From: a virus
Taxonomy: Duplodnaviria; Heunggongvirae; Uroviricota; Caudoviricetes
Direction: 5' to 3' (one strand)
Length of the DNA stretch: 42,656 bases
IMG/VR virus record: IMGVR_UViG_2698536681_000004
Shown: positions 2,735-42,548 of the stretch, piece after piece
Layout: every line of letters starts with the position of its first letter
How positions within the stretch are numbered: the stretch's first letter is position 1
Position numbers and translations under genes: made by a program
Notes under the pieces: generated by a model
What the model was told of the DNA's origin: nothing
Seen by the model: only the letters and a program-made list of their open reading frames with translations
Databases searched by the model: none

Positions 2735-3300
2735 GTAAGCGTGCAGCAAGAACCGTATTGACGGGAATGTGTTATTCAGTCGGCAGTGCTACGCGCCAGG
2801 GGAGCAGTTCGCCGACCCGGTTTATCGGCCAGTCGGCTATGACGTCAAGGACATAGCGGAGGTAGCTTTCTGGCTCCACTCCGTTCAGTTTGCACGTCCC
2901 GATCAGGCTGTACAGCAGCGCTCCCCGCTCTCCTCCATGATCCGAACCGAAGAACAGGTAGTTTTTGCGGCCCAGACTGACCATCCGCAACGCATTTTCA
3001 GCGATGTTATTGTCCGCCTCAGCCCAGCCATCATCTGCATAGTACGTCAGCGCCGGCCACTGGTTCAGGGCATATGCGAACGCTTTCGCCAGTTCTGAGT
3101 GTCGCGACAGGGTTTTCATCTTTTCACGCAGCCAGCTTTCCAGGGATTTCAGCAGCGGTTTCGTTTTCAACTGACGTTCGGCAAGGCGCTGTTTCAGCAG
3201 GAAGATGTCGTCAGAAGAGATGTCGTTCATAAGCCCGTATTTTACCGGGCTTATTCTGTGACAACCAGGATAAAGAGATTTACAGCATGGTCAGGGAGGT
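2735..3300 (-). mobile_element. IS66-family element, 3' portion (terminal repeat starting GTAAGCG at 2735 plus tnpC C-terminal region)
   Basis: IS66-family inverted repeats typically begin 5'-GTAA; GTAAGCGTGCAGCAAG at 2735 lies just beyond the transposase C-terminus; upstream boundary with the prophage end is not resolved. Confidence 0.55.
2772..3230 (-). pseudogene. tnpC: IS66-family transposase TnpC (orf3), C-terminal fragment only
   Basis: Translation ...GRKNYLFFGSDHGGERGALLYSLIGTCKLNGVEPESYLRYVLDVIADWP...ELLPW matches the conserved C-terminal region of IS66 transposases; the N-terminal two thirds are absent and the frame closes at a stop at 3291-3293. Confidence 0.7.
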
Positions 3301-3337
3301 CAGCAGCCGCTTAGGCTGTCTATAGCGCGGCGATTTT

Positions 3338-3405
3338 TTTGATACCGATTTGCATTTCATTTGATACCGCTGAAAAACGCCGATACGCAACTTATTTGAT
3401 ACTAA
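3338..3405. repeat. Prophage right end (attR-like): three closely spaced TTTGATAC(C/T) motifs, putative transposase binding sites
   Basis: TTTGATACCG at 3338-3347 and 3360-3369, TTTGATACTA at 3395-3404; the same motif occurs three times in reverse complement at the other prophage end. Confidence 0.6.
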
Positions 3406-3448
3406 ATCGGCGCTTTTCTTTTGAGTTTTAGAATGAGTTTTTAAGCGT

Positions 3449-4186
3449 TCATTCACTCTCTTTCAAACCAGTTTTAACTGTTTGTGGTTTTGGGTAAGGC
3501 TGGACTTTGAATAGCTTTGTGTTAAGGCGTTTTCTGGCTCTCTTGTCCAGAAACCGGATGTAACGAAACTGACGGAATTTATGAACACTGGCTCTGTCGA
3601 TATTAGCCCGCAGATGTTCACCTCGCTGTCCTCCTCGTTTGATTGCATTCTTGCAAATCTCGTGATACCACTCGCCATCAAGTTCATAGAATGTTGTTTC
3701 ATGACTGCCTACATAATCAAAATTGCTTGCCTGGTACACGACACCAAGACAGCCACAACGCTCATCTGCAAACGACTGAACCCACTGCACCTGCGGATAA
3801 AGTTGTCTGATTAGTTTGAGCGCGTAACTGATTGCCCTTGATTCGGAGTTTCTCGGCATACAGTCATGCAGCCATAACCGGTTAAGCTCCATATATTCGC
3901 GGTTCTGCGTGCCAGTTACGACGCGTGCACCATTGTTTGGATTAAGGGCATAACCCCATTGCATTACGCCAACCAGCTCCCGTTCTGAAAATATGCCCAG
4001 ATGAAGGTAGGAATTATTTACGAAACGATGGCTGTAATGTTTATTGACGACGACCAGCCGGGCCAGCCAGCAACTTATTGTCTCAACCCGTAACTCACGG
4101 GAGCCATAACCGACGATATTGTCGTTATAGTGAATAAGTTCAGGCGTGCTGATGATACGGGATGTAACTTGCTTTCTGTTCCCCAC
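3449..4186 (-). CDS. mom: Mom-like DNA modification protein (start internal to the long ORF, approximate)
   Basis: ORF overlaps the 3' end of com exactly as mom does in Mu and is the last gene before the prophage end; the longest ORF (to 4381) would run through com so the true start is internal, candidate GTG at 4186; Mom family assigned by synteny. Confidence 0.55.
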
Positions 4187-4340
4187 GACAGGATTTCCTT
4201 GTGTATGTGGGGTGCTCTGTGGCGCTCTGAGATGTGATTTGATTGAGGGTTTTACAGCGCGGACATTTAACTTCCAGATAACTGAAGCTGGCTCGTGCCA
4301 GTAGCTTGTTACAATGTCGGCACCGTATGTTTCGATACAT
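4140..4340 (-). CDS. com: Com-like zinc-finger translational activator of mom
   Basis: ATG at 4340 preceded by AGGAGG; product [27 protein letters not shown] has the CxxC...CPRC zinc finger and strong similarity to Mu Com as recalled (IRCKNCNKLLFKA...IEIRCPRCK). Confidence 0.75.
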
Positions 4341-4383
4341 GGCCGCATAACCTCCTGCTTTGTTGTTGATATCTTTATCACTC

Positions 4384-4408
4384 AATCGATCGACAAAAAC
4401 GATCGATT
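4384..4408. promoter_or_regulatory. Perfect 9-bp inverted repeat with a GATC Dam site in each arm, upstream of com-mom
   Basis: AATCGATCG (4384-4392), 7-nt spacer ACAAAAA, CGATCGATT (4400-4408); GATC at 4388-4391 and 4401-4404, a third GATC at 4470-4473; sits about 45-70 bp upstream of the com ATG. Confidence 0.4.
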
Positions 4409-4596
4409 TGATTTATTTAATTGATACAACAAATAACACGAAATGTCATTAGCGAAAATTTATGAGTTTGATCACTAATTTTAAACGGTGCTGTAACGCA
4501 TAAGTGCTGAATGATTGTACATTTGAATACCGCAAAGCAAACAAATCAACTAATTTATAGAAGTCAATTGGTTAATTGCCAGCGTAAGAGGCTGCT

Positions 4597-4890
4597 ATGG
4601 ACAATCATGTAACGACGAGAAATCGAAAAATGATTGAAAATGCGGAAATCTATAATGATTATTTTTCCGATTATTCAGATGCCTGCAAATACAGTTCGAG
4701 TGCGGGAGAGTTCATATGCTTCAACTTTTTTATTAAATCTTATGTTTTTCCTCCACAGCAAGAAGATGGAGGTGTGCCACCTCCTGAAATCACTTTGCAC
4801 CGTATAGCCTCCGTCTCAATGATGGAGCAACAGGCTAATGAGCTGTATAGCATTCTGGGAACGATTCTACAAAAGCGTGAATCGGACTAA
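4597..4890 (+). CDS. Hypothetical protein, AT-rich ORF divergent from com-mom
   Basis: 97-codon ORF with AAGAGG 6 nt upstream of the ATG; AT-rich composition unlike the flanking phage genes; no family recognised. Confidence 0.4.
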   Translation: MDNHVTTRNRKMIENAEIYNDYFSDYSDACKYSSSAGEFICFNFFIKSYVFPPQQEDGGVPPPEITLHRIASVSMMEQQANELYSILGTILQKRESD

Positions 4891-5057
4891 TGATACCGGT
4901 TCATTTGCCTGCCCGGATGGGGAAGCAGGATTGACTGCTCCATAAGCAGCTATATTTCTGAATACGAAATACTATCCAGCGATTACATATGGCTGGATAG
5001 CGGCAAAGATGTTTTCATTAGTGTCAAACCGGCAGAGGACACCACCGGTTTGTATTG

Positions 5058-5312
5058 TTACATCATGGTACTGTCAGTTCCGGGCTGAGCCGGGTCTGGT
5101 TGCTCTGGCTGCGCGTCGGTTTTCGGCTCATTATCAGCATCACTGGCCGCAACTGCTGGCCCAATAAGTTTTGCCAGCACTTCATCAACGTAAGTGTCGA
5201 TTTGTGCCTCAAAATCCTTGCGGACCTGCGCTTTCAGCAACTTATTTACTTCACCGGAATACAGTGCCTGTTTTACCAGGTCTTCAGTGACGGTGCCTTT
5301 AATTTCTGGCAT
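5058..5312 (-). CDS. Hypothetical small acidic protein
   Basis: 84-codon ORF with AGGAGG 6 nt upstream of the ATG at 5312; no family recognised. Confidence 0.5.
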   Translation of the reverse strand: MPEIKGTVTEDLVKQALYSGEVNKLLKAQVRKDFEAQIDTYVDEVLAKLIGPAVAASDADNEPKTDAQPEQPDPAQPGTDSTMM

Positions 5313-5347
5313 GTATATCCTCCTTATGCGGGAATAAAGCCCTGCAA

Positions 5348-5530
5348 TCAGGGCTGGGTCGGGTCTTTTGGGAGCGGAGTTACCTGCGCTGTTTTACTGA
5401 GTTTTTCAGCTGCTGCGTCCTCAATTTTGCGGCGAACATAATTTCTGATGGCCTTATAACCACCACTCACCAGATATAACGCACATACTGCCGTGCAGAA
5501 ATACAATAAAATAAGCTGTAAAAATGTCAT
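5348..5530 (-). CDS. Hypothetical small membrane protein (single N-terminal transmembrane helix)
   Basis: ATG at 5530 preceded by GGGAGGG; product MTFLQLILLYFCTAVCALYLVSGG then a basic tail; no family recognised. Confidence 0.45.
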   Translation of the reverse strand: MTFLQLILLYFCTAVCALYLVSGGYKAIRNYVRRKIEDAAAEKLSKTAQVTPLPKDPTQP

Positions 5531-5579
5531 TATCCCTCCCAATTATTGACATGGTGTTGACACCGGTAATATCTGTTAG

Positions 5580-5667
5580 GTAAAAAGGTGCACTGCATTT
5601 TTTGCTTTGGATATAACGATCTTTTTGCCGCCGGTTTCTTGTTTTCCCTTACCGGCGGCATTTTTTT
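5580..5667 (+). ncRNA. Candidate small RNA (promoter-like hexamers plus strong intrinsic terminator, no ORF)
   Basis: TTGACA at 5546-5551 and 5557-5562, TAATAT at 5567-5572, then about 85 nt downstream a terminator; lies in the intergenic space between two minus-strand genes. Confidence 0.25.
5626..5667 (+). terminator. Rho-independent terminator, plus strand
   Basis: Perfect 10-bp stem TGCCGCCGGT (5626-5635) / ACCGGCGGCA (5651-5660), 15-nt loop, followed by TTTTTTT (5661-5667). Confidence 0.6.
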
Positions 5668-5674
5668 ATCCTGC

Positions 5675-7729
5675 TTACGCGTTATTCACTTCCACCACGA
5701 TACTGTCAATCAGTACCGGGTAAGTCGCATTTTTAGTGATATCGGTCACGCGCAACTTGTCTGCCGTAAACGTGCCGACCGGAGACTGCGACAGCATGAA
5801 TGGTGTCCCGTCCTTACCATCAATGACCGGCGTCACCTCAATACTGTTGTTACCGGCAAAACGGAAGCCCAGCGTATGCCATTCGTTATTAAATGCGCCG
5901 AATGACCCCAGCTTCGTGTTCTGCGCCGTGTTTCCTTTGTGATACATCACGTTAAGGTCTGTGGCATCGCTCTGTACGTAGAACGATGCCAGCAGGTTAT
6001 GACCGGCATTTCCTTCCAGAGTAACCCCTTGCGGCAGGGCAGAAACCGGCCAGTACAGCGCCAGTGCGTACTGATTAGCCGTAAGCGCGCCATCGAGTTT
6101 AAAACGACAACTGACAAGACCACCTTTACCCAGCAGGTCCGCACCATTACCAGCATCATGCTCAAGGTACCAGGGGGCTCTTCCTGTTTCCTTGGTCAGT
6201 TTCATTGCCTTACCCCCGCTGGCTCCGGCATCATCCACGATTTGAGCCTTGCCACCTCCGGCAGCCCAACCCTGTGGTGTCAACCGTCCTTCAGACTCAG
6301 ATGCCCGGTAAGCAAATAGCGTACTCATCGTCGTGGTGTCTGCGGGTGGCGTGGACGGTTTTGATGGTGTATCAGGTGACGGCTTCTCATCCGGTGGTGT
6401 CACGGTCTGCCCACGCATCAGTTCAGCCGTGCGCCCTGCATGGAGCATAATAGCTGAGGCCAGACGGTCTGAAATGACGCCCCTGCGTGCCCATGAGCTG
6501 AAATGGCTGTCACGCTGTGTCGAAACAAAACTGCCCTGGGTTCGGGATGCTGCACCGTAATACCCGACAGCCACAATATCCGGGTCTTCCGCCGGAGCAT
6601 TCGTTGGCGTGCTCTGTCCATTCTCATCCGTCAGGAACGGTACAAAGAAAATTTTCTGTGCTTCCTTGCCTTTGTAGCCACCGTATACTGCCTCATATTT
6701 ATCGGTGCCAGCGTTTTTCCAGTAATACGTGGTATCACCGCAAATCCACGGCACCGTGGTGGCATTTCCACTCACGCACTGCGCAGCAAGCGGAGCCAGG
6801 TCAGTTCTGAACTGCTGAACCATGGCCGTGAATAAACTATTATGCTGCTGGCTTCCTGAGGCAAGGTCTGCCTCTCCCTGCATCCAGACCACAGCCAGAA
6901 GTTTGTTTTTCGGGTTTTTCGCCAGCGCGACTTTGGTGCGGCTTACCAGGTCCTGATACAGAGGTTTACCGGCCCCCCAGCGTGAAGAATCAGCGGAAGC
7001 ACCGCTGGCCTCACTGAATGAGCCGTCGGCTCCAGTGGTGAATGCTGACCCGCCACGACAACAGGGCACCAGAAGTATCCCGGCATTCTGTGGGATATAG
7101 GGAAGCAGTTTTTTGGCAATATGCAACCCCTGACCGACAGTCCCGTACTGGCCTTTTGCCAGATCAGCTTTCGGGTGGTTTATCCCGCTCATATCCTGAA
7201 CATCATGCAGGCAGTGGTCTGCCGGAATGATGTCGTTGTATGTACACGACGTACCGTTGGGCGTTACCGTACTGCGGCGTGCCAGTTGCTTAATGCGTGG
7301 GTCCGGGCGGTCAAACGAATCCGGTAACGGCAGCCCCTCGCCGTAGGCCATGCCATTTGACTGACCCGCGAGAATGACAACAAAGTAATATTCCGGCTCT
7401 GAACTGCTGCCATTCGTGCTACCGGAAGGCCCGGCGTTATCCGGTGCATTCCAGTCGGAGGGCGTGAGCGTTCCGGCCACGTCAGATGTGATTGGAATGA
7501 TGCCAGTCACGCCTGAACTGGTGATTTCTGCACTGGGATTACCGGATACCGGCATTACCCATAATGGCTCTTTCGTGCTGAAGCGGATCACGCAGTCTGC
7601 GAAGGTGATCCCCCCTTTATTACCCGAAGGGCGGAAAGGGCTTTCAATAAATGCCACCGTGCCACCGGCAACCTTGACTGAAAACTCTCCGGGCATGGCG
7701 GAGAGCATTTTCCACTTGGAGTCTGACAT
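5675..7729 (-). CDS. NanS-p-like sialate O-acetylesterase family protein (SGNH/DUF303 esterase with C-terminal lectin-like domain)
   Basis: Catalytic-type motifs VVILAGQSNGMAYGEG and VVWMQGEADL typical of SASA/DUF303 esterases; 684 aa, comparable to prophage NanS-p esterases. Confidence 0.65.
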   Translation of the reverse strand: MSDSKWKMLSAMPGEFSVKVAGGTVAFIESPFRPSGNKGGITFADCVIRFSTKEPLWVMPVSGNPSAEITSSGVTGIIPITSDVAGTLTPSDWNAPDNAGPSGSTNGSSSEPEYYFVVILAGQSNGMAYGEGLPLPDSFDRPDPRIKQLARRSTVTPNGTSCTYNDIIPADHCLHDVQDMSGINHPKADLAKGQYGTVGQGLHIAKKLLPYIPQNAGILLVPCCRGGSAFTTGADGSFSEASGASADSSRWGAGKPLYQDLVSRTKVALAKNPKNKLLAVVWMQGEADLASGSQQHNSLFTAMVQQFRTDLAPLAAQCVSGNATTVPWICGDTTYYWKNAGTDKYEAVYGGYKGKEAQKIFFVPFLTDENGQSTPTNAPAEDPDIVAVGYYGAASRTQGSFVSTQRDSHFSSWARRGVISDRLASAIMLHAGRTAELMRGQTVTPPDEKPSPDTPSKPSTPPADTTTMSTLFAYRASESEGRLTPQGWAAGGGKAQIVDDAGASGGKAMKLTKETGRAPWYLEHDAGNGADLLGKGGLVSCRFKLDGALTANQYALALYWPVSALPQGVTLEGNAGHNLLASFYVQSDATDLNVMYHKGNTAQNTKLGSFGAFNNEWHTLGFRFAGNNSIEVTPVIDGKDGTPFMLSQSPVGTFTADKLRVTDITKNATYPVLIDSIVVEVNNA

Positions 7730-7800
7730 CGTCTTTTCTGCCTGTTTCTGAATTAAACAGAGTCAGAATAGCGACCGCTGAAAAATATGTGTTTTGCGGA

Positions 7801-7834
7801 AATTCAAAAAAGCGTCACGGTACTTTTGGTGACG
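7801..7834 (-). terminator. Intrinsic terminator overlapping the invertase stop codon
   Basis: Stem CGTCAC (7813-7818) / GTGACG (7829-7834) with a 10-nt loop; on the minus strand followed by CTTTTTTGAATT. Confidence 0.5.
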
Positions 7835-8391
7835 GAGCTGGTGAGGCAGGAAAATAACGATAAAGGGTGGAAAGGCCAATATCAAATATCAGTGCGATTT
7901 GTTTACGGGACTCGCCATTAGCCAGCAAACGGGCGATTTGCTCCCGCTCTTTCTCTGTCAGTTTCTGAGGTCTGCCGCCATGACGCCCCTGAGCACGGGC
8001 AGCAGCAAGACCCGCGCGTGTACGTTCAATAATGAGTTCCCGCTCCATTTCCGCCAGCGCGCCCATTATATGGAAAAAGAAACGTCCCATGGGAGTGGAT
8101 GTATCAATATTGTCCGTAATGCTGCGGAAGTTAACGCCGCGTTGCCGGAGTTCTTCTGTTAAAAGGACAAGGTGCTGCATACTGCGTCCAAGGCGATCCA
8201 GTTTCCAGACCAGCAGGGTATCCCCTGGCCGGAGTCGCTTTAATGCGCGTTTAAGTCCGGGACGCTCCCTTGTCTTACCGCTTATTCTGTCTTCGAAAAA
8301 CAGCTCACATCCTGCACATTCCAGCGCATTTCTTTGTAGCGCCGTATTCTGGTCATTTGTTGACACCCTGATATACCCAATNNNNNNNNNN
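7815..8391 (-). CDS. gin: Serine recombinase, DNA invertase of the Gin/Pin/Hin family (first codons lost in the assembly gap)
   Basis: Translation IGYIRVSTNDQNTALQRNALECAGCELFFEDRISGKTRERPGLKRALKRL...GRFFFHIMGALAEMERELIIERT is near-identical in pattern to Gin/Pin; reading frame runs into the N-run at 8392. Confidence 0.9.
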
Positions 8392-8723
8392 NNNNNNNNN
8401 NNNNNNNNNNNNNNNNNNNNNNNNNNNNNNNNNNNNNNNNNNNNNNNNNNNNNNNNNNNNNNNNNNNNNNNNNNNNNNNNNNNNNNNNNNNNNNNNNNNN
8501 NNNNNNNNNNNNNNNNNNNNNNNNNNNNNNNNNNNNNNNNNNNNNNNNNNNNNNNNNNNNNNNNNNNNNNNNNNNNNNNNNNNNNNNNNNNNNNNNNNNN
8601 NNNNNNNNNNNNNNNNNNNNNNNNNNNNNNNNNNNNNNNNNNNNNNNNNNNNNNNNNNNNNNNNNNNNNNNNNNNNNNNNNNNNNNNNNNNNNNNNNNNN
8701 NNNNNNNNNNNNNNNNNNNNNNN
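8392..8723. other. Assembly gap (332 N)
   Basis: Uninterrupted run of n characters. Confidence 1.
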
Positions 8724-8883
8724 CAGGCAGGTAATGTACGGTGGGGCATATTACTCTGCGTACGGTAATGTTATGGCAGGCCTGCAGATTGACAGTAAAG
8801 TTGATGCTTCAAACGATTTTATAGCATTCAGACCCCTGCAAAAATTAGTCGGAGGTACATGGATTACGGTATCTCAGTTATAA
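8724..8883 (+). CDS. C-terminal fragment of an alternative tail fibre variable domain (5' part in gap)
   Basis: Last 52 codons before TAA at 8881-8883 end ...FRPLQKLVGGTWITVSQL, homologous to the C-terminus of the minus-strand tail fibre (...[18 protein letters not shown]). Confidence 0.45.
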
Positions 8884-8934
8884 ATAGTCAGTAAATAATA
8901 TATTTTAAAACAGATTTATTTCCAGGAGGATTTT

Positions 8935-9456
8935 ATGGAACTAAAAAATATAACCCGTTATTATCCTGAAAATATGCCATATGGTAATAATGTTCAGTAT
9001 TTCCAGAGTGAAGATGGTAAGGATTTCTACGAATCCCTGCCATTATTCACCAAAAAATATAAACTTTGCATAACACCTGACAGCGGCGTTATCTGCTCAA
9101 TATCACAGGACGCCTCGGCGCTGTATCCTGCGGGGTTTTCTGTGGTTGAGGTCGATGAACTCCCTGAAGGCACGGATATTTCAGGAAACTGGAAGTTTGA
9201 TAATGGCATAATCTCCCGTATTCCGGTTAACTACGCAAGAAAACTGGAAGCAATGCGCCAGTCATATCTTAATCAGGCATATGAAAAAATTAATGACTGG
9301 AGAACGGAGCTACAACTGGGCACCATCAGCGATGAAGACAGAGCAGCACTTACCCAATGGATGGCATACATCAGTCAGGTGAAGAAAATGGAACTACCCG
9401 CCATTAAAACAGAAGCTGAATTTAACGCCATTAAATGGCCTGAGCAGCCACAGTAA
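8935..9456 (+). CDS. tfa: Tail fibre assembly protein (Tfa/U-like)
   Basis: CAGGAGG 7 nt upstream of the ATG; C-terminal region LTQWMAYISQVKKMELPAIKTEAEFNAIKWPEQP resembles the conserved Tfa C-terminus; follows the alternative fibre tip on the same strand. Confidence 0.75.
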   Translation: MELKNITRYYPENMPYGNNVQYFQSEDGKDFYESLPLFTKKYKLCITPDSGVICSISQDASALYPAGFSVVEVDELPEGTDISGNWKFDNGIISRIPVNYARKLEAMRQSYLNQAYEKINDWRTELQLGTISDEDRAALTQWMAYISQVKKMELPAIKTEAEFNAIKWPEQPQ

Positions 9457-9459
9457 TAA

Positions 9460-9479
9460 AGAAGGCCGGAAGGCCTTCT
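9460..9479. terminator. Hairpin between convergent tfa and tail fibre genes
   Basis: Perfect 8-bp stem AGAAGGCC/GGCCTTCT with GGAA loop; weak flanking T-runs. Confidence 0.35.
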
Positions 9480-9487
9480 GAATATCA

Positions 9488-10369
9488 TTATATACTTGCA
9501 GCCGTCACCCATGCTCCATTTAACAGATACTGCAACGGCCGGTAATACACGCCGCCGACGTTATCTGCCGTATTCTTACCGACATCCTGTACTTTAATTC
9601 CGGTAAGAACATTGCCGCCCCCCAGATTCAGATCCCAGCTTTCCCATGTTCCGGGCATATGTGCGGTCACCGACCCCAGTCTTATGGCGGTTACTGTTCC
9701 TGATGAGATAGTGATATCCTGCGTCCCGTCAAAGGGAACACCATTAATTGTGTGGGCATTTGCCAGCCTGTTCGCGGCAACGGCGGTGCCGTCCGATGGC
9801 AGGGCATTCGCCGCCCTGTTTACCGTTTCCCGTAAACCGACGTTATCGATAAAAGCCCCTTTATCCGGAATGTCTGCGCCGTTCTGCTCCCTGCGCAGGT
9901 AACGGTTATCACCTTCGCTTTTGCTGTAAACATCCAGATTATTACGGGCGGTTCCCTTATTCTCCAGGTCGGCGAGATTCTGATCCTTCGCCAGGGCATT
10001 AACGTCAGCGGGACCAAGACTGTTTTTTGTGGCAAGCGTCCCCAGACCAAGATAACCACGGGCCAGACGCTGGGCCTCCGCACCGGCATCAGCAATTTCT
10101 TTCAGGTTATTTTTCCGGGAAAAGGCATTCGCAGCGATAATGGCTTTAATGGACAGCGTAAGCTGGTTTAACTGCGCCTTATCCGGCTGAATACTGGCTT
10201 CAGCCAGAATATTCAGCAGTTCGGCCTGGAGAATATTCAGCCAGTCCTGACCAATCCAGCTGATACCTTTTTGTCCGTCACCTTCGGTAAACCAGGTGGT
10301 GGTATTACTCTGCGCCGGTGCCAGCGCAGGCATATTCGCCACGCCGGAATTATTATCAACATGAAACAT
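9488..10369 (-). CDS. Tail fibre protein (Mu S-like; constant N-terminal part joined to a variable C-terminal part)
   Basis: Last gene of the tail/baseplate operon, followed by tfa and invertase; contains an internal gix-like recombination site. Confidence 0.75.
9827..9852. other. Candidate Gin/Pin-type recombination site (gix-like) inside the tail fibre gene
   Basis: TTCCCGTAAACC GA CGTTATCGATAA compared with gixL as recalled TTCCTGTAAACC GA GGTTTTGGATAA; encodes residues about 171-180 of the fibre. Confidence 0.55.
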
Positions 10370-10929
10370 TAAATAGTCTCCTCTTCATGGCTGTTTGCAT
10401 AAACGTAAATAAACGTCTGCCATGCAGGCTTATAACGGTTCAGAATACATTCCAGCGCACCGCCTTCATAAATACGCAGCGGCGTGAGAATATCATCCAG
10501 CACATTCATATTCCGGTAGCCGGTTTCACTGTTAATCGTGACAATACTGACCCACTGCGAATCCGGTGAGGGCTGAATGTCAATCTGATAACCAAACTCC
10601 GCCGCAAACCGGATATAAAATTCACGGTTCAGCGAGGGCTTCATCCGGTATTTATTTCCGGCATAACGCTGTCGCTCCGTGAGGGTGGCTCCGGCCATAT
10701 CACACTCGGGAAGCCCGAGATAACGCTCCCAGTCTTCCAGCAGCAGGCGCGACGTGTCAGGGAAACGCTCGGCAAGCAGCTGTTTACCCGTCCAGGATAC
10801 ACGCGCTGTCGAATGACTGAGGCCCAGACATAATGATGCCAGTACGGATGACGGACGCTTGTCCCATGCCAGCCCGTCAGGCAGTAACTGCAACAGGGCG
10901 CGCTGATGCGGGGTCAGGGTTACAGCCAT
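10369..10929 (-). CDS. Mu gp48-like tail protein (DUF2313-like)
   Basis: Position between baseplate J-like gene and tail fibre; overlapping start/stop with neighbours. Confidence 0.6.
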
Positions 10930-24433: not shown

Positions 24434-24554
24434 ATTGCCTCCGCATAAAGGATGAATATAAAATAAACAGGCGGTCAGTGTACGCTTAACTGGTAAAGTC
24501 GGTGCCTGCCTCCGGGTGGATCATGTATGCGGGTTCGACCCCCGCCACTGACCG

Positions 24555-33599: not shown

Positions 33600-33600
33600 A

Positions 33601-33744
33601 TTATTCATCCTCACAATTTATACATGCAGTGTCGTCGCCCATATCGCAGTGGTTACATTTTATCTCACCACAATGTGGGCACTCTTTCAGATACTCCGGG
33701 TCCTCATTTCCACAGGTGGGACATTCAACAATTTGCTCATCCAT
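33601..33744 (-). CDS. Small zinc-ribbon protein (47 aa, four CxxC pairs), not in the ORF track
   Basis: Product MDEQIVECPTCGNEDPEYLKECPHCGEIKCNHCDMGDDTACINCEDE; AGGGGA upstream of the ATG, which overlaps the stop of the upstream gene (ATGGATGA). Confidence 0.5.
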   Translation of the reverse strand: MDEQIVECPTCGNEDPEYLKECPHCGEIKCNHCDMGDDTACINCEDE

Positions 33745-34617: not shown

Positions 34618-34620
34618 GCA

Positions 34621-35136
34621 TCACCCCCTGACTCGCTTTTCAGCAGCATAAAACTCATCAGACAGTATTTCGGTCATTTTCTGTTTTGCGGGTTTTACGC
34701 CGCACTGAAGGTAAATCACATCGTCAACGCAGAACCACTTCACAGGGCCAAACAGGATTGCCGAGAAATCAATACCCAACCAGAACAACAGCGCATCGGT
34801 TCTGGCATACGTGACGGGCGAATATTCACGCCACAGACTGTTCAGTTCATCAGAGGCAACACGCAGGGTTTTAGGGATACGTGATGTGCGCGGTGTGCAG
34901 CTCCAGCCATTCGACGCAGTCGGTTTTCGCCATAAGTCGCGATGAAAAGGATATTTGTCCTCCGTAAAACGCAGTCCCTTAAAGTAAAATCCACTGATAC
35001 CGGATACAAATACCGACCGGCACGCAACATTCAGCACGGCCTCAAGGCGTTTTGCCTCATCCTTAACTTTCTGGCAGTCCTGCTGGTATTTTTGCCACGC
35101 AGCCAGCGCGGAAGGGTTTGATGTTTTAAAGAACAT
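34621..35136 (-). CDS. Hypothetical protein
   Basis: 171-codon ORF in early operon. Confidence 0.45.
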   Translation of the reverse strand: MFFKTSNPSALAAWQKYQQDCQKVKDEAKRLEAVLNVACRSVFVSGISGFYFKGLRFTEDKYPFHRDLWRKPTASNGWSCTPRTSRIPKTLRVASDELNSLWREYSPVTYARTDALLFWLGIDFSAILFGPVKWFCVDDVIYLQCGVKPAKQKMTEILSDEFYAAEKRVRG

Positions 35137-35669
35137 TACGCCACCTCCGCAGATATCCCGGCAGGCGCTGCTGTCCGGTCAACAATCAGGTAGCGCAGAA
35201 CATGTTCAGTGATATTCCAGCCGCTTAAACCGCAGATAATGACGCCCAGGCGTATGTCGATATACGCCATCACAAACTGGGGCACGCCTTCTTTCATGGC
35301 CTGCTCATCAACTTCAGCCACCACATAAACGGTTTCACAGGTCAGAACGCCCTGAGCAAATTCCCACGCCATCGACGGAATATCATGCCCCTCAATCCAT
35401 GGCAGGGATTTTCTGAAGCCGCACCACTGAACATCATCAGCCGCAGATTCCTGGCTGCATTTGCGACGAACCGGCTGCACCGGGCGGGGACGCGGAATAT
35501 CATAAAAACCGTTACATTCCGTCAGCACGCCTGCATCAACCGCATCACGCAGAAAATAAACCATGGAGGATGGCGGCATATTCATTTTTTCAGCCAGTAC
35601 ACCGCAGGTCAGGCGGCCATAAATACACAGCCAGTTTTTAACCCCTTCAAGCACTTTTGCATCAATCAT
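35136..35669 (-). CDS. Hypothetical protein
   Basis: 177-codon ORF in early operon. Confidence 0.45.
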   Translation of the reverse strand: MIDAKVLEGVKNWLCIYGRLTCGVLAEKMNMPPSSMVYFLRDAVDAGVLTECNGFYDIPRPRPVQPVRRKCSQESAADDVQWCGFRKSLPWIEGHDIPSMAWEFAQGVLTCETVYVVAEVDEQAMKEGVPQFVMAYIDIRLGVIICGLSGWNITEHVLRYLIVDRTAAPAGISAEVA

Positions 35670-35814
35670 GATTTATTTCCCCACCACATTATTAATGACG
35701 ATATAAACGTATTTCATATTTCTTAACCCTTATTTTCTGTTTTCAGGCGCAAGCAGTCCCCTGACGCGAGCGCCATAATTAAAATGAAGTGATATTTAAT
35801 TGATTAATGCGGTG

Positions 35815-36345
35815 TTATTTATTCAGTCCGGCGTCCTGTTCAAAAGGCTCGACATAAAAACTTTCAGCGCCTTTATTCACCTTGATACCGGCAATGCCTT
35901 TCACAGCATCCGGCTCCGCCAGGACGGCTTCCTTGTTCACTTCCTCTTTCGTGCGGATGAAACGCTCAAGCCCCATACGGCGCAGCATTTCAATCACACC
36001 TTCCACATCACGGCTGACGCTGCATGATGGCGTTCCCAGCCGCCATGACACCGTTCCGGTGGTCAGATTGGCTGTTTTGGTTTTGCCGCCGTTCGTCAGC
36101 TCATCACGGTTGGTTTTGCACCAGTCCTGAATCCCTTTAAAAAGCACTTTGATTTGCTTTTTAAGATTTTCAATCTGCGGCGTATAACGGGCGGTGATTT
36201 CTGCCACTTCGTCATTCATCGCCGTTTCCAGGCGCAGCGCCTCTCGCTGAATATCTCCCAGGGTGCGGATATCACGGCTGACTTCTTCCCGGGTCTGCGG
36301 TGCCGCCTCGGCTGCGGCCTTTAATTTTGTAACGCGTTTAGCCAT
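35815..36345 (-). CDS. gam: Host-nuclease inhibitor Gam (Mu Gam, Ku-like)
   Basis: Translation ...IRTLGDIQREALRLETAMNDEVAEITARY...CKTNRDELTNGGKTKTANLTTGTVSWR...RFIRTKEEVNKEA closely follows Mu Gam as recalled. Confidence 0.8.
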   Translation of the reverse strand: MAKRVTKLKAAAEAAPQTREEVSRDIRTLGDIQREALRLETAMNDEVAEITARYTPQIENLKKQIKVLFKGIQDWCKTNRDELTNGGKTKTANLTTGTVSWRLGTPSCSVSRDVEGVIEMLRRMGLERFIRTKEEVNKEAVLAEPDAVKGIAGIKVNKGAESFYVEPFEQDAGLNK

Positions 36346-36356
36346 TTTGTTTTTCC

Positions 36357-36650
36357 TTATTGCAGTGTGCCTGATGCTTTATGCACGCGGTGGCGTTTAA
36401 TGATGGCATCCGCTCCAAAAGACTGTGCAGATGCCTGAAATTCCGCTGAGAGAAACTGAATAATTGCAGGACTGTGATACTGGAGAATACTTGCATAAAC
36501 GTCACAGAGTGACGTCGGCCTGTTATCCGTATCACGTTCTGTTTTCACATCCACTCCAATCTTTTCATGCACTTCAACACAGTCATTGCCTGCCAACTTT
36601 TCGTCATGCGAAACATGATTAAATTCAAAAATAACGCGTACTTTGCTCAT
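36357..36650 (-). CDS. Hypothetical protein, tandem paralogue A (start at internal ATG)
   Basis: Begins MSKVRVIFEFNH, matching the N-terminus of the adjacent upstream gene. Confidence 0.45.
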   Translation of the reverse strand: MSKVRVIFEFNHVSHDEKLAGNDCVEVHEKIGVDVKTERDTDNRPTSLCDVYASILQYHSPAIIQFLSAEFQASAQSFGADAIIKRHRVHKASGTLQ

Positions 36651-36654
36651 GGAA

Positions 36655-36927
36655 TTACCCCTGTTGATTAAATTCATTACCGTTAATAACCCCGGAAGCC
36701 ATGCCTCTGTCTTTCATGAATGCACTGGCTTTCATTGCCACAAACTCTGCGAAGTTTCTGCTTTCTGCCAGCATAACCACCCCAAAAATCATGGCGGGTC
36801 CATTATCTTTCTTCTTTATTCCGGTTGAACGTATATCCAGACTTACCCCTCTGTGCGTGCTGCCATCAGAGTTTTTGCAGATAACATCTTCCTTGTATTC
36901 GAAAATAATGCGTACGACTTTACTCAT
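36655..36927 (-). CDS. Hypothetical protein, tandem paralogue B
   Basis: Begins MSKVVRIIFEYKED; DNA around both starts is also similar. Confidence 0.45.
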   Translation of the reverse strand: MSKVVRIIFEYKEDVICKNSDGSTHRGVSLDIRSTGIKKKDNGPAMIFGVVMLAESRNFAEFVAMKASAFMKDRGMASGVINGNEFNQQG

Positions 36928-37205
36928 CCTCTGGTCCTCGTTCTGTTTGGATAACTGACCCGGCGTCTAACCTCACGGCAGAACCGAATCATGGCATTAA
37001 AGGCTTCTTCCTCCGTCACCGCTTCCGGTATCCCCGGAACCAGTAACTGCTCCTGTTCATCACGTCCATGACGCGCCATAACCTCAATCACATGCCGTAC
37101 CGTGGCAGGCTTTCCGGCAACTATCGGCAATGCACCTTCCGGCAGGACGTAACCAAACTCAATAAGACCACTCGACCACGCCCATGCAATGAGATTTTTT
37201 TTCAC
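36924..37205 (-). CDS. Hypothetical protein
   Basis: 93-codon ORF in early operon. Confidence 0.4.
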   Translation of the reverse strand: MKKNLIAWAWSSGLIEFGYVLPEGALPIVAGKPATVRHVIEVMARHGRDEQEQLLVPGIPEAVTEEEAFNAMIRFCREVRRRVSYPNRTRTRG

Positions 37206-37206
37206 C

Positions 37207-37473
37207 TCACACCTCCCAGTAAACCGTGCAGCCGCTGATGCGGGTGGCCTTCACACGGCGGCGCAGGCCGTTGGTCTGTATGGTGATTTCAATTTCACCG
37301 GTTCCCTGCACGTTGCCTACCGGCGGCGTGGTTTTCAGTGCAAAACGTTGCGGATAGCGCTTACTGCGTTCCAGTACCGCACCGGCAAGTTCGGTCAGAC
37401 GGCGCGCGCTGTTCAGGGAGTCGAATAAATTCATTTTGTTACCGCAGGATTGCATATTCATATAACACCTCAT
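37207..37473 (-). CDS. Hypothetical protein
   Basis: 88-codon ORF in early operon. Confidence 0.4.
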   Translation of the reverse strand: MRCYMNMQSCGNKMNLFDSLNSARRLTELAGAVLERSKRYPQRFALKTTPPVGNVQGTGEIEITIQTNGLRRRVKATRISGCTVYWEV

Positions 37474-37701
37474 TTAGCTGACTTGTTTCGCACCAACAGA
37501 ACGGCATATTCCGCTGTAAACTTCTGTCGCACCTTCGCGATCAAGTCCGGCAGATATCACCATTCGTGTGCGGTCATTAAATTCAAAAAGTAAATCGCCA
37601 CATTCTTTATTTTCGGCCAGTGAAATCACCTTCACGTTATCGAAATTAACCAGGTAAAAGCGTCCGTAAATATCAGGAATATTAAATACCGCCATAATCA
37701 C
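37474..37701 (-). CDS. Hypothetical protein
   Basis: 75-codon ORF immediately downstream of B. Confidence 0.4.
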   Translation of the reverse strand: MIMAVFNIPDIYGRFYLVNFDNVKVISLAENKECGDLLFEFNDRTRMVISAGLDREGATEVYSGICRSVGAKQVS

Positions 37702-38639
37702 ACCTGTGAGAGTAATTCAGGGTTGGTATAAACCTCTTTAAAGGCCGCATTAATATGTTTTTCTGTCAGCGCCGCGCCTTCACCGCTGGCGGTGAGCCAC
37801 GCCTGGTTAAGCGTATGTGTCAGAACGCGTAACGCTCCCGGCTTTTCAGCGATAGCCTGCATGACGGCCAGCTCGGCCTCACCACTGATCCCCCACGCCA
37901 TGGCAATGGCCAGCACATCCGCCTTTTTGGCCTTGCGAAGTTGTTTTGTACGGGCAAGACGGCTGAACAGGCGCGATAAATCATCAAAGGCGCGGCGTCC
38001 ACCTTTAAACAATCCGCGCGGGTTACCAATAAGCACCATCCCGATCCCCGTGGCGTCCTGAATTGCCCGGAGTTGCTCCAGACCGTCAATACCAAGATGA
38101 TCCGCCTCATCCACAATCACCAGTCCACGCGTTCCCATCAGGCGACGGCGGATGGCGCGGGATAATGCCCCTTTGTTCGCGCGGGTGTAATCAATCCCCA
38201 GCGCATCGGCCAGCTCCAGCAGACACTCCGTGACGCTGGAGTGCGCGGGTGACAGGGTGATCATCCAGGTGTTTGGTTGCTCCTGGCAGTAATTACGGGC
38301 AGTGGCCGTTTTACCCACACCCGGTACGCCCACAATAACGTTAATACAGCCCATCAGGCGAACCGCCTGAAACAGTGCGCGCAGCTCCTGGACTGTCTGA
38401 GTTTCCACAAACTGCGGCGGTTCCGGCAGTGCGCTTTGTTTATTCCAGTTCTCATACCAGGAGCGCAGGGAAGCAGCCACAGCAGCGTTATCGCCTTTAT
38501 ATTTTCCCTTACGGAAAGCCGATAATGTGCCGTCGGAAATTCCCGCCTCTCTGGCGATGGCATACTGCGTCAGTACGCCGCCATCAATAAGTTCATCAAT
38601 GGTCTTGATTACATCGTTAATATCGGTCATATTATTCAC
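37698..38639 (-). CDS. B: Transposition ATPase B (MuB-like)
   Basis: N-terminal helix-turn-helix, Walker A GVPGVGKT, and position directly downstream of the transposase. Confidence 0.8.
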   Translation of the reverse strand: MNNMTDINDVIKTIDELIDGGVLTQYAIAREAGISDGTLSAFRKGKYKGDNAAVAASLRSWYENWNKQSALPEPPQFVETQTVQELRALFQAVRLMGCINVIVGVPGVGKTATARNYCQEQPNTWMITLSPAHSSVTECLLELADALGIDYTRANKGALSRAIRRRLMGTRGLVIVDEADHLGIDGLEQLRAIQDATGIGMVLIGNPRGLFKGGRRAFDDLSRLFSRLARTKQLRKAKKADVLAIAMAWGISGEAELAVMQAIAEKPGALRVLTHTLNQAWLTASGEGAALTEKHINAAFKEVYTNPELLSQV

Positions 38640-38712
38640 CTCGCTTGAGACAGCATTCTCCGAGACTGAAACCTCAAATAACCTGAGTCACCCCTCGGGT
38701 TATTTTTTTATT

Positions 38713-40800
38713 TCAGGCCAGCGGATCACTTTCTTTTAATTTCGCTTCGAGCAGTTGCAATCCCCGCTGGAAATTACGCTCGTATTCTTCATCAGGTTCA
38801 TCGTCAGCGACCGGTTGCTGAACGGTCACCGTATTACCCACAGGGCGGTATATGTTTTCCAGCCAGGGCTCCTGCGGCTTGTGCTCCAGCACGTTGACAA
38901 CCTCATCCTCGGCATCACGGATTTTTTCCTCTGCGCGTTTACGCATGCCTTTAAGGCGCTGCTGCTGTTTGTAGTATTCCGCGCTGACAGGGAAGGCTTC
39001 GCGTTTATTGCCGTCCCATACCGCCTCGCAAATCACGCTGCCATCCGGGCGGCGCACGGTAATTCGTTCGGCATCATGAATGTCATAGCTGATAAGTACC
39101 TTACGGCCATGCTCGTCACGCAGCTCGGGCGCGTAGTAAATATTATTCAGCCAGCGTATTTCACAGCGTCTTACAGGGCGCTCCACCATCGGCCGGAACA
39201 TATCCCGCAGTTCAACATCGGACAGCCATTCAATTTCCGTGTCCTCTTCCGCCAGGCGTTTTTTTCTGAACTCCGCCGGGCTGTAATGTTTACCGTTCGG
39301 CTTCATGGGTAATTCATCGTGCGGCCGGTTGTTGTACCACTCAACACCGTCACGAATGGCATCAATCAGTTCAGACCAGGACGGTAAATCACGCATCGCT
39401 GACTGCTGCCGGGCGTTCAGCCGTTTGCCCTGTTGCAGGGCACTGAATGCCGAGCGTAAATCGCGGTTGGTTTTACGTAACGTCTCGCGATCTGCTCCTT
39501 TCCCGAAATAGGTGCGGTATTTACGGGCTATGCGCATCGGTAATGTGCGGTTAAGCCGTTCGATAATGCCCCGTCCCTGCGGATTACCGGCAATCCCTGT
39601 CGGGTGATTAATCCCCAGTCGTGGCAGTATCCCCACAATCTCCTTATCCAGGACGTCGGCGGTTTCCCCGGAGCCATTATCCGAGTAATACAGAAACGGT
39701 TTGCCATGATGGCGAATACCGTGCTGTATGGCACCGGCTACGGCGAAAACATTTTCAGCCAGGTCAAGGCTCCAGCCCACCACAAAGCGCGTGCCACCGT
39801 CGATAACAAAGGTCACTTCCGGTGCGAATGGCCGCCCGTGAACCGGGTGCGCGCATTTCAGCTTCATGCCGTGACCGTCACCAATCCAGACATAATTCAC
39901 CGGCATTCTGGACCAGTCGCGGCGCGTGAATCCCTCAAGCTGACGGTATTCACTGCCAGTTACCCGGCCTTTTTGTTTCACCACTTCCGGCAGTTTCTTC
40001 ATTGCGCGGCGAATGGTGTCATAAGAGGGCATGATATCGAGCATATAAGGCTCATCAGCGTGCCGGTGCTGCCATTCAGCAACAAAATCCTCGTAAGCCT
40101 CGGTCATTGGTCGGCCGTTTGACTGGCGATACTGCGCCAGAAATTCGGGCAGCCAGTTAATATCTTCGGCTTTTATTTCCTGGCGTTTACCCGGTGCCAG
40201 TAAAAGCAGGCGTTCAGCGGCGTTCTGTGCCTTGTTAAAGGCCGCAATCCAGCGTTTCAGCGTGATTTCACTCAACGCGCGGCTGTTTCCCTTTTTGGCG
40301 TTCGCCGTCTCAACCATTGCCACAATGCGCTCGTCCAGTTGTGATCGTGCCAGGCTGTTAACGAGGAACCGGATAGCTTTAGCGCAGCTGAAACCGGGTT
40401 GTTGCGTGAATTTCAGCACCTCACTGACGATCGCAATGCGTGCGTCTGCCACCTGGCGCTGGTTTTCAGTCAGGGCATTGAGGCGTTCGACCATCAGTTG
40501 TGGTGATCCGCGATATGCCTCCACCGCATCAACCACGGCAGACGAGCGTCTGGCCTTTGTCACCACCGGAGCCGGTGATTCATCGGCTTTTTGCGTCATC
40601 AGTTGCAGGGCATAACGTTCGCGTAATGCCTGCTGTGTCACTTCAGGTAAACAGTCAATGCTGTATTCAAAACCTTTAGCGCCTTTCTTGCGGCGTCTGC
40701 TGGTTTCGCTGGTTGCATACTTCCTGATTGAATAGCGAACGCCTTGCTCCGTTCCCGGCATCCCCGGTAATCCAACCAGTTCTTTAACTGAAGCAAACAT
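38713..40800 (-). CDS. A: DDE transposase A (MuA-like)
   Basis: 695-aa product with N-terminal DNA-binding region and central integrase-like core; follows ner. Confidence 0.85.
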   Translation of the reverse strand: MFASVKELVGLPGMPGTEQGVRYSIRKYATSETSRRRKKGAKGFEYSIDCLPEVTQQALRERYALQLMTQKADESPAPVVTKARRSSAVVDAVEAYRGSPQLMVERLNALTENQRQVADARIAIVSEVLKFTQQPGFSCAKAIRFLVNSLARSQLDERIVAMVETANAKKGNSRALSEITLKRWIAAFNKAQNAAERLLLLAPGKRQEIKAEDINWLPEFLAQYRQSNGRPMTEAYEDFVAEWQHRHADEPYMLDIMPSYDTIRRAMKKLPEVVKQKGRVTGSEYRQLEGFTRRDWSRMPVNYVWIGDGHGMKLKCAHPVHGRPFAPEVTFVIDGGTRFVVGWSLDLAENVFAVAGAIQHGIRHHGKPFLYYSDNGSGETADVLDKEIVGILPRLGINHPTGIAGNPQGRGIIERLNRTLPMRIARKYRTYFGKGADRETLRKTNRDLRSAFSALQQGKRLNARQQSAMRDLPSWSELIDAIRDGVEWYNNRPHDELPMKPNGKHYSPAEFRKKRLAEEDTEIEWLSDVELRDMFRPMVERPVRRCEIRWLNNIYYAPELRDEHGRKVLISYDIHDAERITVRRPDGSVICEAVWDGNKREAFPVSAEYYKQQQRLKGMRKRAEEKIRDAEDEVVNVLEHKPQEPWLENIYRPVGNTVTVQQPVADDEPDEEYERNFQRGLQLLEAKLKESDPLA

Positions 40801-40802
40801 AA

Positions 40803-41033
40803 TTACGCGACCTTACGAATGTAGCGGCTGGGCCAAATCTCCTCGGGCGGCACCCCCAGGCATTCCGCGATAATCCCCTCATACTTGGGAACATGGCGGT
40901 ATACCGCGTTGTACAGATTGTTCTGACCCACGCCAGCTTTACGGGCCAGCGCCCTCATGCTTCCTTCTCTGGCTCTGACTTCCCCCAAAATTCTTTGAGG
41001 ATGCCAATCAGGCTTAACTTCATTTCTCGCCAT
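40803..41033 (-). CDS. ner: Ner-like DNA-binding regulator
   Basis: Translation ...VKPDWHPQRILGEVRAR..SMRALARKAGVGQNNLYNAV...EEIWPSRY parallels Mu Ner as recalled. Confidence 0.75.
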   Translation of the reverse strand: MARNEVKPDWHPQRILGEVRAREGSMRALARKAGVGQNNLYNAVYRHVPKYEGIIAECLGVPPEEIWPSRYIRKVA

Positions 41034-41218
41034 GATTCATCTATCCTAAAAAGTTACGAAATTTGATAACTAAACTTAGTTATCAAGTTTGATATAAGTA
41101 TTGATCCACTTCTGCTTCATGTAAAGCAAAAAAAACATCTTTCTTTTGTCTATTGTGGATCAATGGTTGCTGACAACACTAAAAGTTAATAATTTCAAAT
41201 TGATAGGAAGAAAAGAAA
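41034..41218. promoter_or_regulatory. Divergent early/repressor control region with operator-like palindromes
   Basis: Perfect palindrome TTGATAACTA AACT TAGTTATCAA (41063-41086) and inverted repeat ATTGATCCAC (41100-41109) / GTGGATCAAT (41155-41164), both arms of the second containing GATC. Confidence 0.5.
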
Positions 41219-41764
41219 ATGAACAAGCAAACAACAACATCTCTTTCTTTTCCTGGTGGTAGAAAAGAAAGCATTGCTGAGCGTCTGAAAAGGCTGATTG
41301 GCTCCCGCAGCGTCAGAGCTGCAGCAAGAGATTGGGGGCTTTCATTTTCAACACTAAACAATTATCTGTCTCGTGGCACTGAGCCATCCTTAAGTGTCGC
41401 CCTTCAGATTGCGTCTATCGAAGGAGTAAGTGTTGAGTGGCTATGTGGATTCAGTGATGCATCACAAGTGAATCGGTGTGAGATCAAGGAAAATCAAGAT
41501 GAAAGCAAGAAGATAATTATGACGATTATCAGCGCACTTGATGAAAAAGACTTAGAGCAGCTATCGAAAAATTTGGTTCTGAATGGAGCCAAGTACTTAG
41601 CTCGGTTGTTAGAGCCTGAAAATCAAGATCTAATCCGCTTAGAAGGAAGGAAAAGAATAGCTGCATTACAGCTTGAAGGTATGTCTGACGAACGCGTCAG
41701 AGAGATTTTGGAAGAAACTGAGAGAAGTCGCAAATCTAACGCGGTAGAACCAAAAGCGGGTTAA
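41219..41764 (+). CDS. c: Prophage repressor (c-like, helix-turn-helix)
   Basis: Divergent from ner across an operator-rich region; HTH-like segment WGLSFSTLNNYLSRGTEPSL; last gene before the prophage end. Confidence 0.6.
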   Translation: MNKQTTTSLSFPGGRKESIAERLKRLIGSRSVRAAARDWGLSFSTLNNYLSRGTEPSLSVALQIASIEGVSVEWLCGFSDASQVNRCEIKENQDESKKIIMTIISALDEKDLEQLSKNLVLNGAKYLARLLEPENQDLIRLEGRKRIAALQLEGMSDERVREILEETERSRKSNAVEPKAG

Positions 41765-41836
41765 TAGCATTAGCCCGCATTTTGCACTATATCGAGTATT
41801 TCGCATTGTTTGGAACGCCTTAAAAGACTAAAACCA

Positions 41837-42000
41837 CAGTATCAAATGAGTTGCCGATTTTATAATAAATGACTAATTATTGCACAATCGGTATCAAATA
41901 GACCTTATCCGCACATCTAGCCATCACCTGTTTTATTTCAGTATCTTACAGGTGATTTCACCTCCTTTCACTAAACCCCTTGTCGGTATCAAATGATTCA
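41837..42000. repeat. Prophage left end (attL-like): three spaced copies of the end motif in reverse complement, terminal CA at 42000
   Basis: CAGTATCAAATG (41837-41848), CGGTATCAAATA (41889-41900), CGGTATCAAATG (41985-41996); spread-out spacing contrasts with the compact set at the other end, as for Mu attL versus attR. Confidence 0.6.
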
Positions 42001-42321
42001 CCTGGTTATATGTCGCCAGTCGATACCTTCCAGCAGCATCGCCAGCTGCGCCTGTGTAAGGAACACTTTGCCATCACGGGCTGACGGCCAGGCGAAGCGC
42101 CCACGCTCCAGCCGTTTGGTCAGGAGGCACAGTCCGTCACTGGTGGACCACAGCAGTTTAACCTGACTGCCGCTGCGGCCCCGGAAAATGAAAACATGGC
42201 CGGACATGGGATCGTCTTTCAGCGCCGTCTGTACTTTCGCAGCCAGGCCGTTGAAGCCATTTCTCATATCGGTGATACCGGCAACCAGCCAAATTTTGAT
42301 CCCGGAAGGTAACGGGATCAT
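41998..42321 (-). CDS. tnpB: IS66-family accessory protein TnpB (orf2)
   Basis: Translation MIPLPSGIKIWLVAGITDMRNGFNGLAAKVQ...DGKVFLTQAQLAMLLEGIDWR matches IS66 Orf2; the C-terminus may be altered by the prophage junction. Confidence 0.8.
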   Translation of the reverse strand: MIPLPSGIKIWLVAGITDMRNGFNGLAAKVQTALKDDPMSGHVFIFRGRSGSQVKLLWSTSDGLCLLTKRLERGRFAWPSARDGKVFLTQAQLAMLLEGIDWRHITR

Positions 42322-42548
42322 CGCTTCAGTTCCTGTATCAGCAGAGTCAGGAGCTTTTCGCTGACATTGCCATTGAAGCGGAGCGTCCCGTGCCGGAACG
42401 TTACCTCACAGCTGATACTGAGGGTTTTCGGGTCCTCTGCGAGCGATTCTGGCTGTTCGGCAGCTGCATCGAGAGTCACAGGAAGTAGCTGGGGGCTCTC
42501 TGAAGAAGGTAATAGCTGAGGTGTACTGGCAATAGCGGACACTACCAT
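42318..42548 (-). CDS. tnpA: IS66-family TnpA (orf1), possibly 5'-truncated
   Basis: Overlaps tnpB start as in IS66 operons; ends ...TFRHGTLRFNGNVSEKLLTLLIQELKR; shorter than typical. Confidence 0.65.
   Translation of the reverse strand: MVVSAIASTPQLLPSSESPQLLPVTLDAAAEQPESLAEDPKTLSISCEVTFRHGTLRFNGNVSEKLLTLLIQELKR

Follow-up and report, generated by a model that had tools for sequence, protein, structure and literature searches.

An Sp18-like prophage in a degraded IS66-family remnant of Shigella sonnei, flanked by a 4-bp target duplication

INTRODUCTION

Transposable phages are described as duplicating 5 bp of target DNA (Mu) or 6 bp (B3), and every Mu- and B3-like phage described had conserved TG–CA ends until TA–TA ends came to light in Leptospira (a 2021 paper, PMC8705779). 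The prophage discussed here, Mu-like in its genes, is flanked by a 4-bp duplication and ends in TA...TA, whereas Mu duplicates 5 bp and ends in TG...CA (PMC8705779). It lies in the viral record IMGVR_UViG_2698536681_000004, a stretch of 42,656 nucleotides (nt), within the remnant of an insertion sequence (IS) of the IS66 family. By ‘the window’ we mean the whole of that stretch, along which positions are counted unless another locus is named.

Among described prophages, Sp18 of Escherichia coli O157:H7 Sakai and its E. coli relatives (HH35, PO06021, 23CRST047) have the same order of genes—repressor, Ner, MuA, MuB ... head, tail, invertase ... Com, Mom—and share with the prophage here the Mom-end terminus TATAGCGCGG and the 4-bp duplication. 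Sp18 itself is 75–96% identical to it, with a divergent immunity region (only ~79%), and sits in sorM in Sakai rather than in the tnpB gene of an IS66 element; the DNA of Sp18 is packaged (PMC2669165). With Mu the prophage here shares homologues of MuA and MuB, Ner, Gam, Mor, Com and Mom, a tail-fibre region that can invert, and a range of many unrelated insertion sites; no Mu record stood among the 12 best matches when a phage collection was searched with window 17100–42010. SfMu is likewise a Mu-like phage found in Shigella, but the prophage here is not SfMu, to which the match is 71.5% identity over 3% of the query.

The target, too, has known relatives. From tnpA through tnpB to codon 18 of tnpC it is 99.2% identical to an ISEc8-like element (locus L023), and its last 457 bp, terminal repeat included, are 99.6% identical to ISEc22. 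It differs from both elements in that 1,080 bp of tnpC are gone, and IS600 and the prophage interrupt tnpA and tnpB, respectively.

The original prediction, made from the letters of the window alone, was that the phage had transposed into one IS66 copy with an adjacent deletion of most of tnpC; no matching 5-bp flanking duplication had been found. When the flanks are aligned to intact IS66-family elements, the junctions map to 3320/3321 and 42010/42011 and the missing 1,080 bp can be located; when they are compared with strains that lack the prophage, the deletion proves to be there already. The split is real, and phage-caused loss of tnpC is ruled out.

Our explanation, which we hold with high confidence, is that an Sp18-like phage inserted cleanly, by simple transposition, into an IS66 remnant of S. 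sonnei that was already degraded, the loss from tnpC having come earlier. The phage would have entered tnpB near its 3′ end, beyond codon 103 of 115, in a remnant that is itself part of an ipaH-carrying prophage remnant in the S. sonnei chromosome; it would have duplicated TGTC and removed nothing. By then tnpC would have been short of 360 internal codons, tnpA broken by IS600, and the left repeat clipped by 9 bp, and the IS66 remnant was inactive on several counts before the phage arrived.

EMPTY SITES IN PROPHAGE-FREE GENOMES

By exact-sequence look-up, the 152-amino acid (aa) product of 2772–3230, the truncated tnpC, occurs in 457 blocks of the collection; ten loci were returned. All ten are organized in one order: IS600, a 76-aa tnpA fragment, a 115-aa TnpB, the 152-aa TnpC fragment, a tail-fibre gene, a tail-fibre assembly gene, and ipaH. 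In the prophage-free loci TnpB is intact, at 115 aa, and stands beside a truncated TnpC identical to that of the window. Many S. sonnei chromosomes are without the prophage. In locus L007, 5269–5914 correspond to window 42656–42011 (100% identity) and 5911–9221 correspond to window 3320–10 (99.9% identity), the two alignments overlapping by exactly 4 bp. The same junction behaviour is found in eight more prophage-free loci, and the site is also uninterrupted in S. sonnei 53G (HE616528, the source of locus L009). All of the nine prophage-free loci with contiguous flanks except L014 come from multi-megabase chromosomal contigs.

Because prophage-free S. sonnei genomes have the two flanks side by side without a break, these are parts of one IS66 copy, as originally predicted, and not of two different copies. 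Because the empty-site alignments overlap by 4 bp, the insertion of the phage removed nothing. And because the truncated TnpC is already present in prophage-free genomes, the deletion in tnpC predates the phage.

It is on this last point that the earlier reading fails. Most of tnpC is indeed gone on the Mom-end side of the prophage, and Mu-type replicative transposition can yield adjacent deletions, so that loss of tnpC from an intact IS66 copy—in the same event that brought the phage, or in a later phage-mediated rearrangement—could be proposed. Yet the identical truncated TnpC occurs next to intact TnpB where there is no phage; the deletion joint lies 128–145 bp away from the prophage end, with intact, collinear IS66 sequence in between; and both copies of the target duplication are perfect, whereas a one-sided adjacent deletion would have destroyed the duplication. 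We regard this explanation as extremely improbable.

The TnpB that is fused to phage sequence, 107 aa long, occurs in 110 index blocks, as against 457 for the truncated TnpC, and these numbers are consistent with a prophage-bearing sub-lineage that is derived. Among the 110 is a complete genome, CP176614 (L017), which matches the right side of the window through IS600, tnpA and tnpB to the prophage end.

Two things weigh against the account we favour. The first is that two draft contigs, L018 and L019, share the tnpB–prophage junction but run on into an unbroken tnpA and then IS1, with no IS600; L014, which is prophage-free, is also without IS600. Across the assemblies (L014, L018 and L019 versus L007, L017 and L020), tnpA with IS600 and tnpA without it each occur both with and without the prophage in tnpB, four states in all, and at face value these are in conflict with a simple clonal history. 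Most probably the assembly of short reads followed a path through another copy of this IS66 element, the alternative being real variation upstream; the discrepancy in L018 and L019 leaves the prophage junction itself unaffected. The second is that we infer the ancestral status of the empty site from parsimony and counts.

The first of these points could be turned into a different history, in which each flank derives from an IS66 copy of its own, and an inversion or a deletion, through recombination of two prophage or two IS copies, brought them together. IS copies are numerous in S. sonnei, the remnant has a chimeric make-up (ISEc8-like at its 5′ side, ISEc22 at its 3′ side), and the upstream context differs in L018 and L019. 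But the flanks are contiguous, with the 4-bp overlap, in the nine prophage-free loci, and uninterrupted in 53G as well; the joint of the chimera is at 3176–3193 and not at the prophage; and the complete genome CP176614 matches the right side of the window across IS600, tnpA, tnpB and the prophage end. Joining of two copies thus seems to us hardly credible.

The second point bears on the direction of the event. Had the site been occupied ancestrally, and had the prophage then been excised precisely so as to restore a single TGTC, the result would look identical to a site that was never occupied. Mu-type prophages very rarely excise precisely, however; the occupied allele is the minority one in the block counts; and in S. 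sonnei 53G tnpB is uninterrupted while a different Mu-like prophage is found 1.2 kb away. Excision is accordingly a slim prospect in our estimation and, even were it correct, the deletion in tnpC would be independent of the phage. Insertion, rather than excision, is therefore the probable direction.

The prophage of 53G deserves a word of its own. It is related to that of the window, is Mu-like, and has the same orientation, but lies ~1.2 kb away in the tail-fibre gene (from L009 7125 onward; approximately window 2107); its immunity region differs (78.5% identity), and its terminus is TGTAACC. Two independent Mu-like insertions have thus occurred within 1.2 kb of each other in different S. sonnei lineages.

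PROPHAGE ENDS AND TARGET DUPLICATION

The prophage occupies 3321–42010 on the minus strand, 38,690 bp that include a run of 342 Ns, and so its length is approximate. Its Mom/Com end is at 3321, its repressor/Ner/MuA/MuB end is at 42010, and its termini in the window read TATAGCGCGG...CCTGGTTATA. BLAST comparisons with intact IS66-family elements carry IS66 homology from 2735 to 3320 on the left—past the end of the tnpC open reading frame (ORF) at 3230—and resume it from 42011 on the right. At the point of insertion intact elements read GGCTGTCGCC (longer context ...CTTAGGCTGTCGCCAGTCG...). The left junction of the window is GGCTGTC/TATAGCG... (in longer form ...CTTAGGCTGTC/TATAGCGCGG...), and the right junction is ...GGTTATA/TGTCGCC (in longer form ...CCTGGTTATA/TGTCGCCAGTCG...). 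When these flanks are set against intact elements and against the empty site, TGTC at 3317–3320 and TGTC at 42011–42014 are the two copies of the target-site duplication. Contrary to what had been thought, a flanking duplication is present and perfect, and it is of the length found in all eight insertions of this phage group that we compared (see below). The insertion point is within tnpB itself, near the 3′ end, with 103 of the 115 codons before it, rather than between that gene and tnpC.

The first and last 400 bp of 3321–42010 match, from first base to last, in 234 E. coli records at unrelated chromosomal sites and, because of these end-to-end matches, 3321 and 42010 can be taken as the true ends of the phage. 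A canonical Mu end near 42000 (TGAATCA..., a guess) was also considered; it was rejected, since the ends common to independent insertions reach 10 bp further, to 42010.

The prophage is of a known kind and the insertion an ordinary one. The main finding carries little biological weight, for what was hit was an IS remnant already dead, and the event was probably neutral. The insertion may serve as a marker of a lineage within S. sonnei, and there is a lesson of method: before a phage is blamed for a deletion, the junctions need to be mapped at the level of the base against an empty site.

ANATOMY OF THE IS66 REMNANT

Pfam matches to TnpB_IS66, DDE_Tnp_IS66 and MuA/MuB bear out that a Mu-like prophage is flanked by IS66-family genes, which all lie on the minus strand in the IS66 order (tnpA–tnpB–tnpC). 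The distribution of these genes around the prophage is a little different from what was first supposed.

On the right, tnpA and tnpB are present as predicted, but of tnpA the window contains only ~65 of 126 codons, the 3′ half (42318–42516, minus strand; 99.2% identity to the intact element in L023); the start of its ORF is inside IS600. In L007 the 5′ half is found on the far side of IS600, at 3877–4144. Codons 1–103 of tnpB (42011–42321, minus strand) belong to a 107-aa ORF, 41998–42321, that is partly read from phage DNA, ends in HITR-stop, and matches Pfam TnpB_IS66 (PF05717) with an E-value of 1.2e-37. This ORF and that of tnpA (42318–42548) overlap by 4 nt, the stop of tnpA over the start of tnpB. 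Window 42011–42516 as a whole is 98.4% identical to the intact element in L002 and 99.2% identical to that in L023.

On the left there is more than the C-terminal third of tnpC, which is all that had been recognized there. The third is present, and upstream of it are the last 12 codons of tnpB, a spacer, and the genuine start of tnpC with ~18 codons. The displaced end of tnpB (12 codons and stop; 3280–3320, minus strand) is contiguous with the rest of the gene in L007, and the 49-nt spacer between tnpB and tnpC (3231–3279, minus strand) is collinear with L007 5952–6000, so that once the prophage is taken out tnpC begins 49 nt past tnpB. Window 3176–3320 is 97.9% identical to intact tnpB 3′ ends (L001, L002). 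Pfam and alignments to intact elements identify 2772–3230 (minus strand) as the truncated tnpC, 152 aa in length: the genuine ATG and ~18 codons, fused in frame to the last ~134 codons. Relative to ISEc22 it lacks 1,080 bp, or 360 codons, in frame, including most of the DDE_Tnp_IS66 domain, of which only profile positions 195–283 of 284 are matched; DDE_Tnp_IS66_C is matched also. Without a complete DDE_Tnp_IS66 domain, it is a homologous remnant and not a functional member of the family. Last comes the right terminal region (2735–2771, minus strand), which by its sequence and by the ISEc22 copies in L001 and L022 is of the ISEc22 type, with a repeat that starts GTAAGCG. Window 2735–3191 is 99.6% identical to these same two copies.

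Three-way alignment and overlapping BLAST pieces place the joint of the tnpC deletion at 3176–3193. It is an 18-bp stretch, AACAGCGCCT[T/G]GCCGAAC, that encodes QRLAE and is present at both breakpoints with one mismatch; the near-repeat occurs at TnpC residues ~13–18 and ~373–378. To the 5′ side of this joint the remnant is 99.2% identical to the ISEc8-like element of L023 and 81% identical to ISEc22; to the 3′ side it is 99.6% identical to ISEc22 and 86.5% identical to the ISEc8-like element. By these identities the remnant looks chimeric, and its two ends appear to come from different elements. IS66-family elements duplicate 8 bp of target DNA; the left terminal repeat of the remnant is outside the window and, in L007, is without its first 9 bp. 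A short-homology deletion between two neighbouring elements could have formed the joint, as could an internal deletion in a hybrid element. A similar pairing of ISEc8-like and ISEc22 sequence, with other breakpoints, is seen in E. coli 20AR0300 (L003).

Among 5,426 complete E. coli genomes there is no tail-fibre/IS66 junction, no tnpC deletion joint, no match in one piece to the reconstructed prophage-free remnant, and no single intact element that matches both halves. The best full-length matches are either in two pieces, ISEc22 beside an ISEc8-like element—the 99.2% matches being of this kind, two adjacent elements—or intact elements at ~94% overall.

The outer limits first given for the split element were 2735 and 42548. 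The former stands as the outer end of an IS66-type terminal repeat (GTAAGCG...). The latter corresponds to no IS66 feature: IS66 sequence stops at 42516, and the ATG at 42546–42548 of the 76-aa ‘tnpA’ ORF sits inside the terminal repeat of IS600, which cuts tnpA at 42516/42517. The right end of this IS600 (IS3 family), inserted in tnpA, occupies 42517–42656 on the minus strand, runs off the window, and matches the annotated IS600 of L002 and L003 at 100% identity. In L007 the whole insert is 1,264 bp (4145–5408), lies between the halves of tnpA, and is flanked by a 3-bp duplication, GCT; sequence identity, a TG terminus and this 3-bp duplication all identify it as IS600.

CONTENT OF THE PROPHAGE

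From the low-coordinate end, the genes of the prophage come in the order Mom and Com; tail, head and lysis genes and Gam; and MuB, MuA, Ner and repressor. Pfam recognizes MuA, MuB, Ner-like and Mom domains. MuB is at 37698–38639 (PF09077, AAA_22), MuA at 38713–40800 (PF02316, PF09299), Ner at 40803–41033 (HTH_35), and the repressor at 41219–41764; with a MuA-type transposase and a MuB ATPase that adjoin the repressor and Ner genes at one end, the prophage is Mu-like. It is 99.4–99.96% identical to the prophage of E. coli HH35, and related strains likewise.

The 342-N run, at 8382–8723 next to the DNA-invertase gene, is either masked or unassembled; the equivalent stretch in L004 is 285 bp. It falls in the invertible tail-fibre region and gives rise to a spurious 283-aa ORF, 8032–8883. 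The low GC content at 8–9 kb is an artefact of the same run.

FOUR-bp DUPLICATIONS AND TA TERMINI IN Sp18-LIKE PHAGES

Eight independent insertions were compared, that of the window and those in loci L004, L005, L021, L022, L024, L025 and L026. The sites are the IS66 tnpB, a diguanylate cyclase gene, bcsA, a ydcF-family gene/elyC, sorM, flgL, xdhA and paaA. Each insertion is flanked by an exact 4-bp repeat (8/8): TGTC in the window, confirmed against the empty site, CGTA in HH35, CGTC in S1-CAM-01-A, TCTA in 23CRST047, TTTA in Sakai Sp18, TGCG in M3, CACA in CI5, and TCAC in STEC1587. A 5-bp duplication like that of Mu can be ruled out for these insertions, since no shift of the boundaries gives 5 bp and each shift of either boundary by one base fails in most of the eight.

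The Mom-end terminus is 5′-TATAGCGCGG in all eight copies. The repressor-end terminus is 5′-TATAACCAGG in seven; Sakai Sp18 alone of the eight has TGTAACCAGG, which is also found at the repressor end of the S. sonnei 53G prophage, outside this set. In short form, Sp18 and the 53G prophage have TGTAACC at that end, compared with TATAACC here. The ends are therefore not TG...CA: those of the window read TATAGCG...GGTTATA, and Sp18 has TG at the repressor end only.

It may be that Sp18-like phages integrate by a 4-bp staggered cut and with TA-3′ termini, and this would make the geometry of their transpososome a variant of the Mu type not described before, although on balance we lean slightly away from so large a claim. 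A literature search, incomplete in its coverage, found no description of a 4-bp duplication for the Sp18-like group, nor of the ends of Sp18, and we do not claim novelty. If confirmed experimentally, and if undescribed, the combination of a 4-bp duplication and TA termini may interest the field of transposition mechanism.

NEIGHBOURING GENES AND OTHER FEATURES

ARAGORN, and Rfam at gathering thresholds, find no RNA genes in the window. In E. coli prophages nearly identical to this one, NCBI annotates a ‘tRNA-OTHER’ of 80 nt at the equivalent of 24468–24547 (plus strand), between virion-morphogenesis and minor-head genes. Its 3′ end is like a T-arm plus acceptor (GGGTTCGACCCCCGCCA); neither ARAGORN nor Rfam reports it, and its fold is not better than that of shuffled sequence (z = 0.37).

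Outside the prophage, the right-hand ~650 bp of the window are made up of IS66 sequence (tnpB and a part of tnpA) and one end of IS600. The left-hand 3.3 kb include, at 1–2718, a remnant of a lambdoid prophage with a tail-fibre assembly gene and, running off the left edge, a gene of the ipaH family of E3 ligases, represented by its 3′ part, the NEL domain (ORF 280–792). The tail-fibre gene of this remnant (1546–2718, minus strand) abuts the IS66 end and is without ~33 N-terminal codons: positions 34–131 of the 134 in the Pfam phage_tail_N profile are matched from residue 2 onward. The same gene comes next after the IS66 remnant in every empty-site locus.

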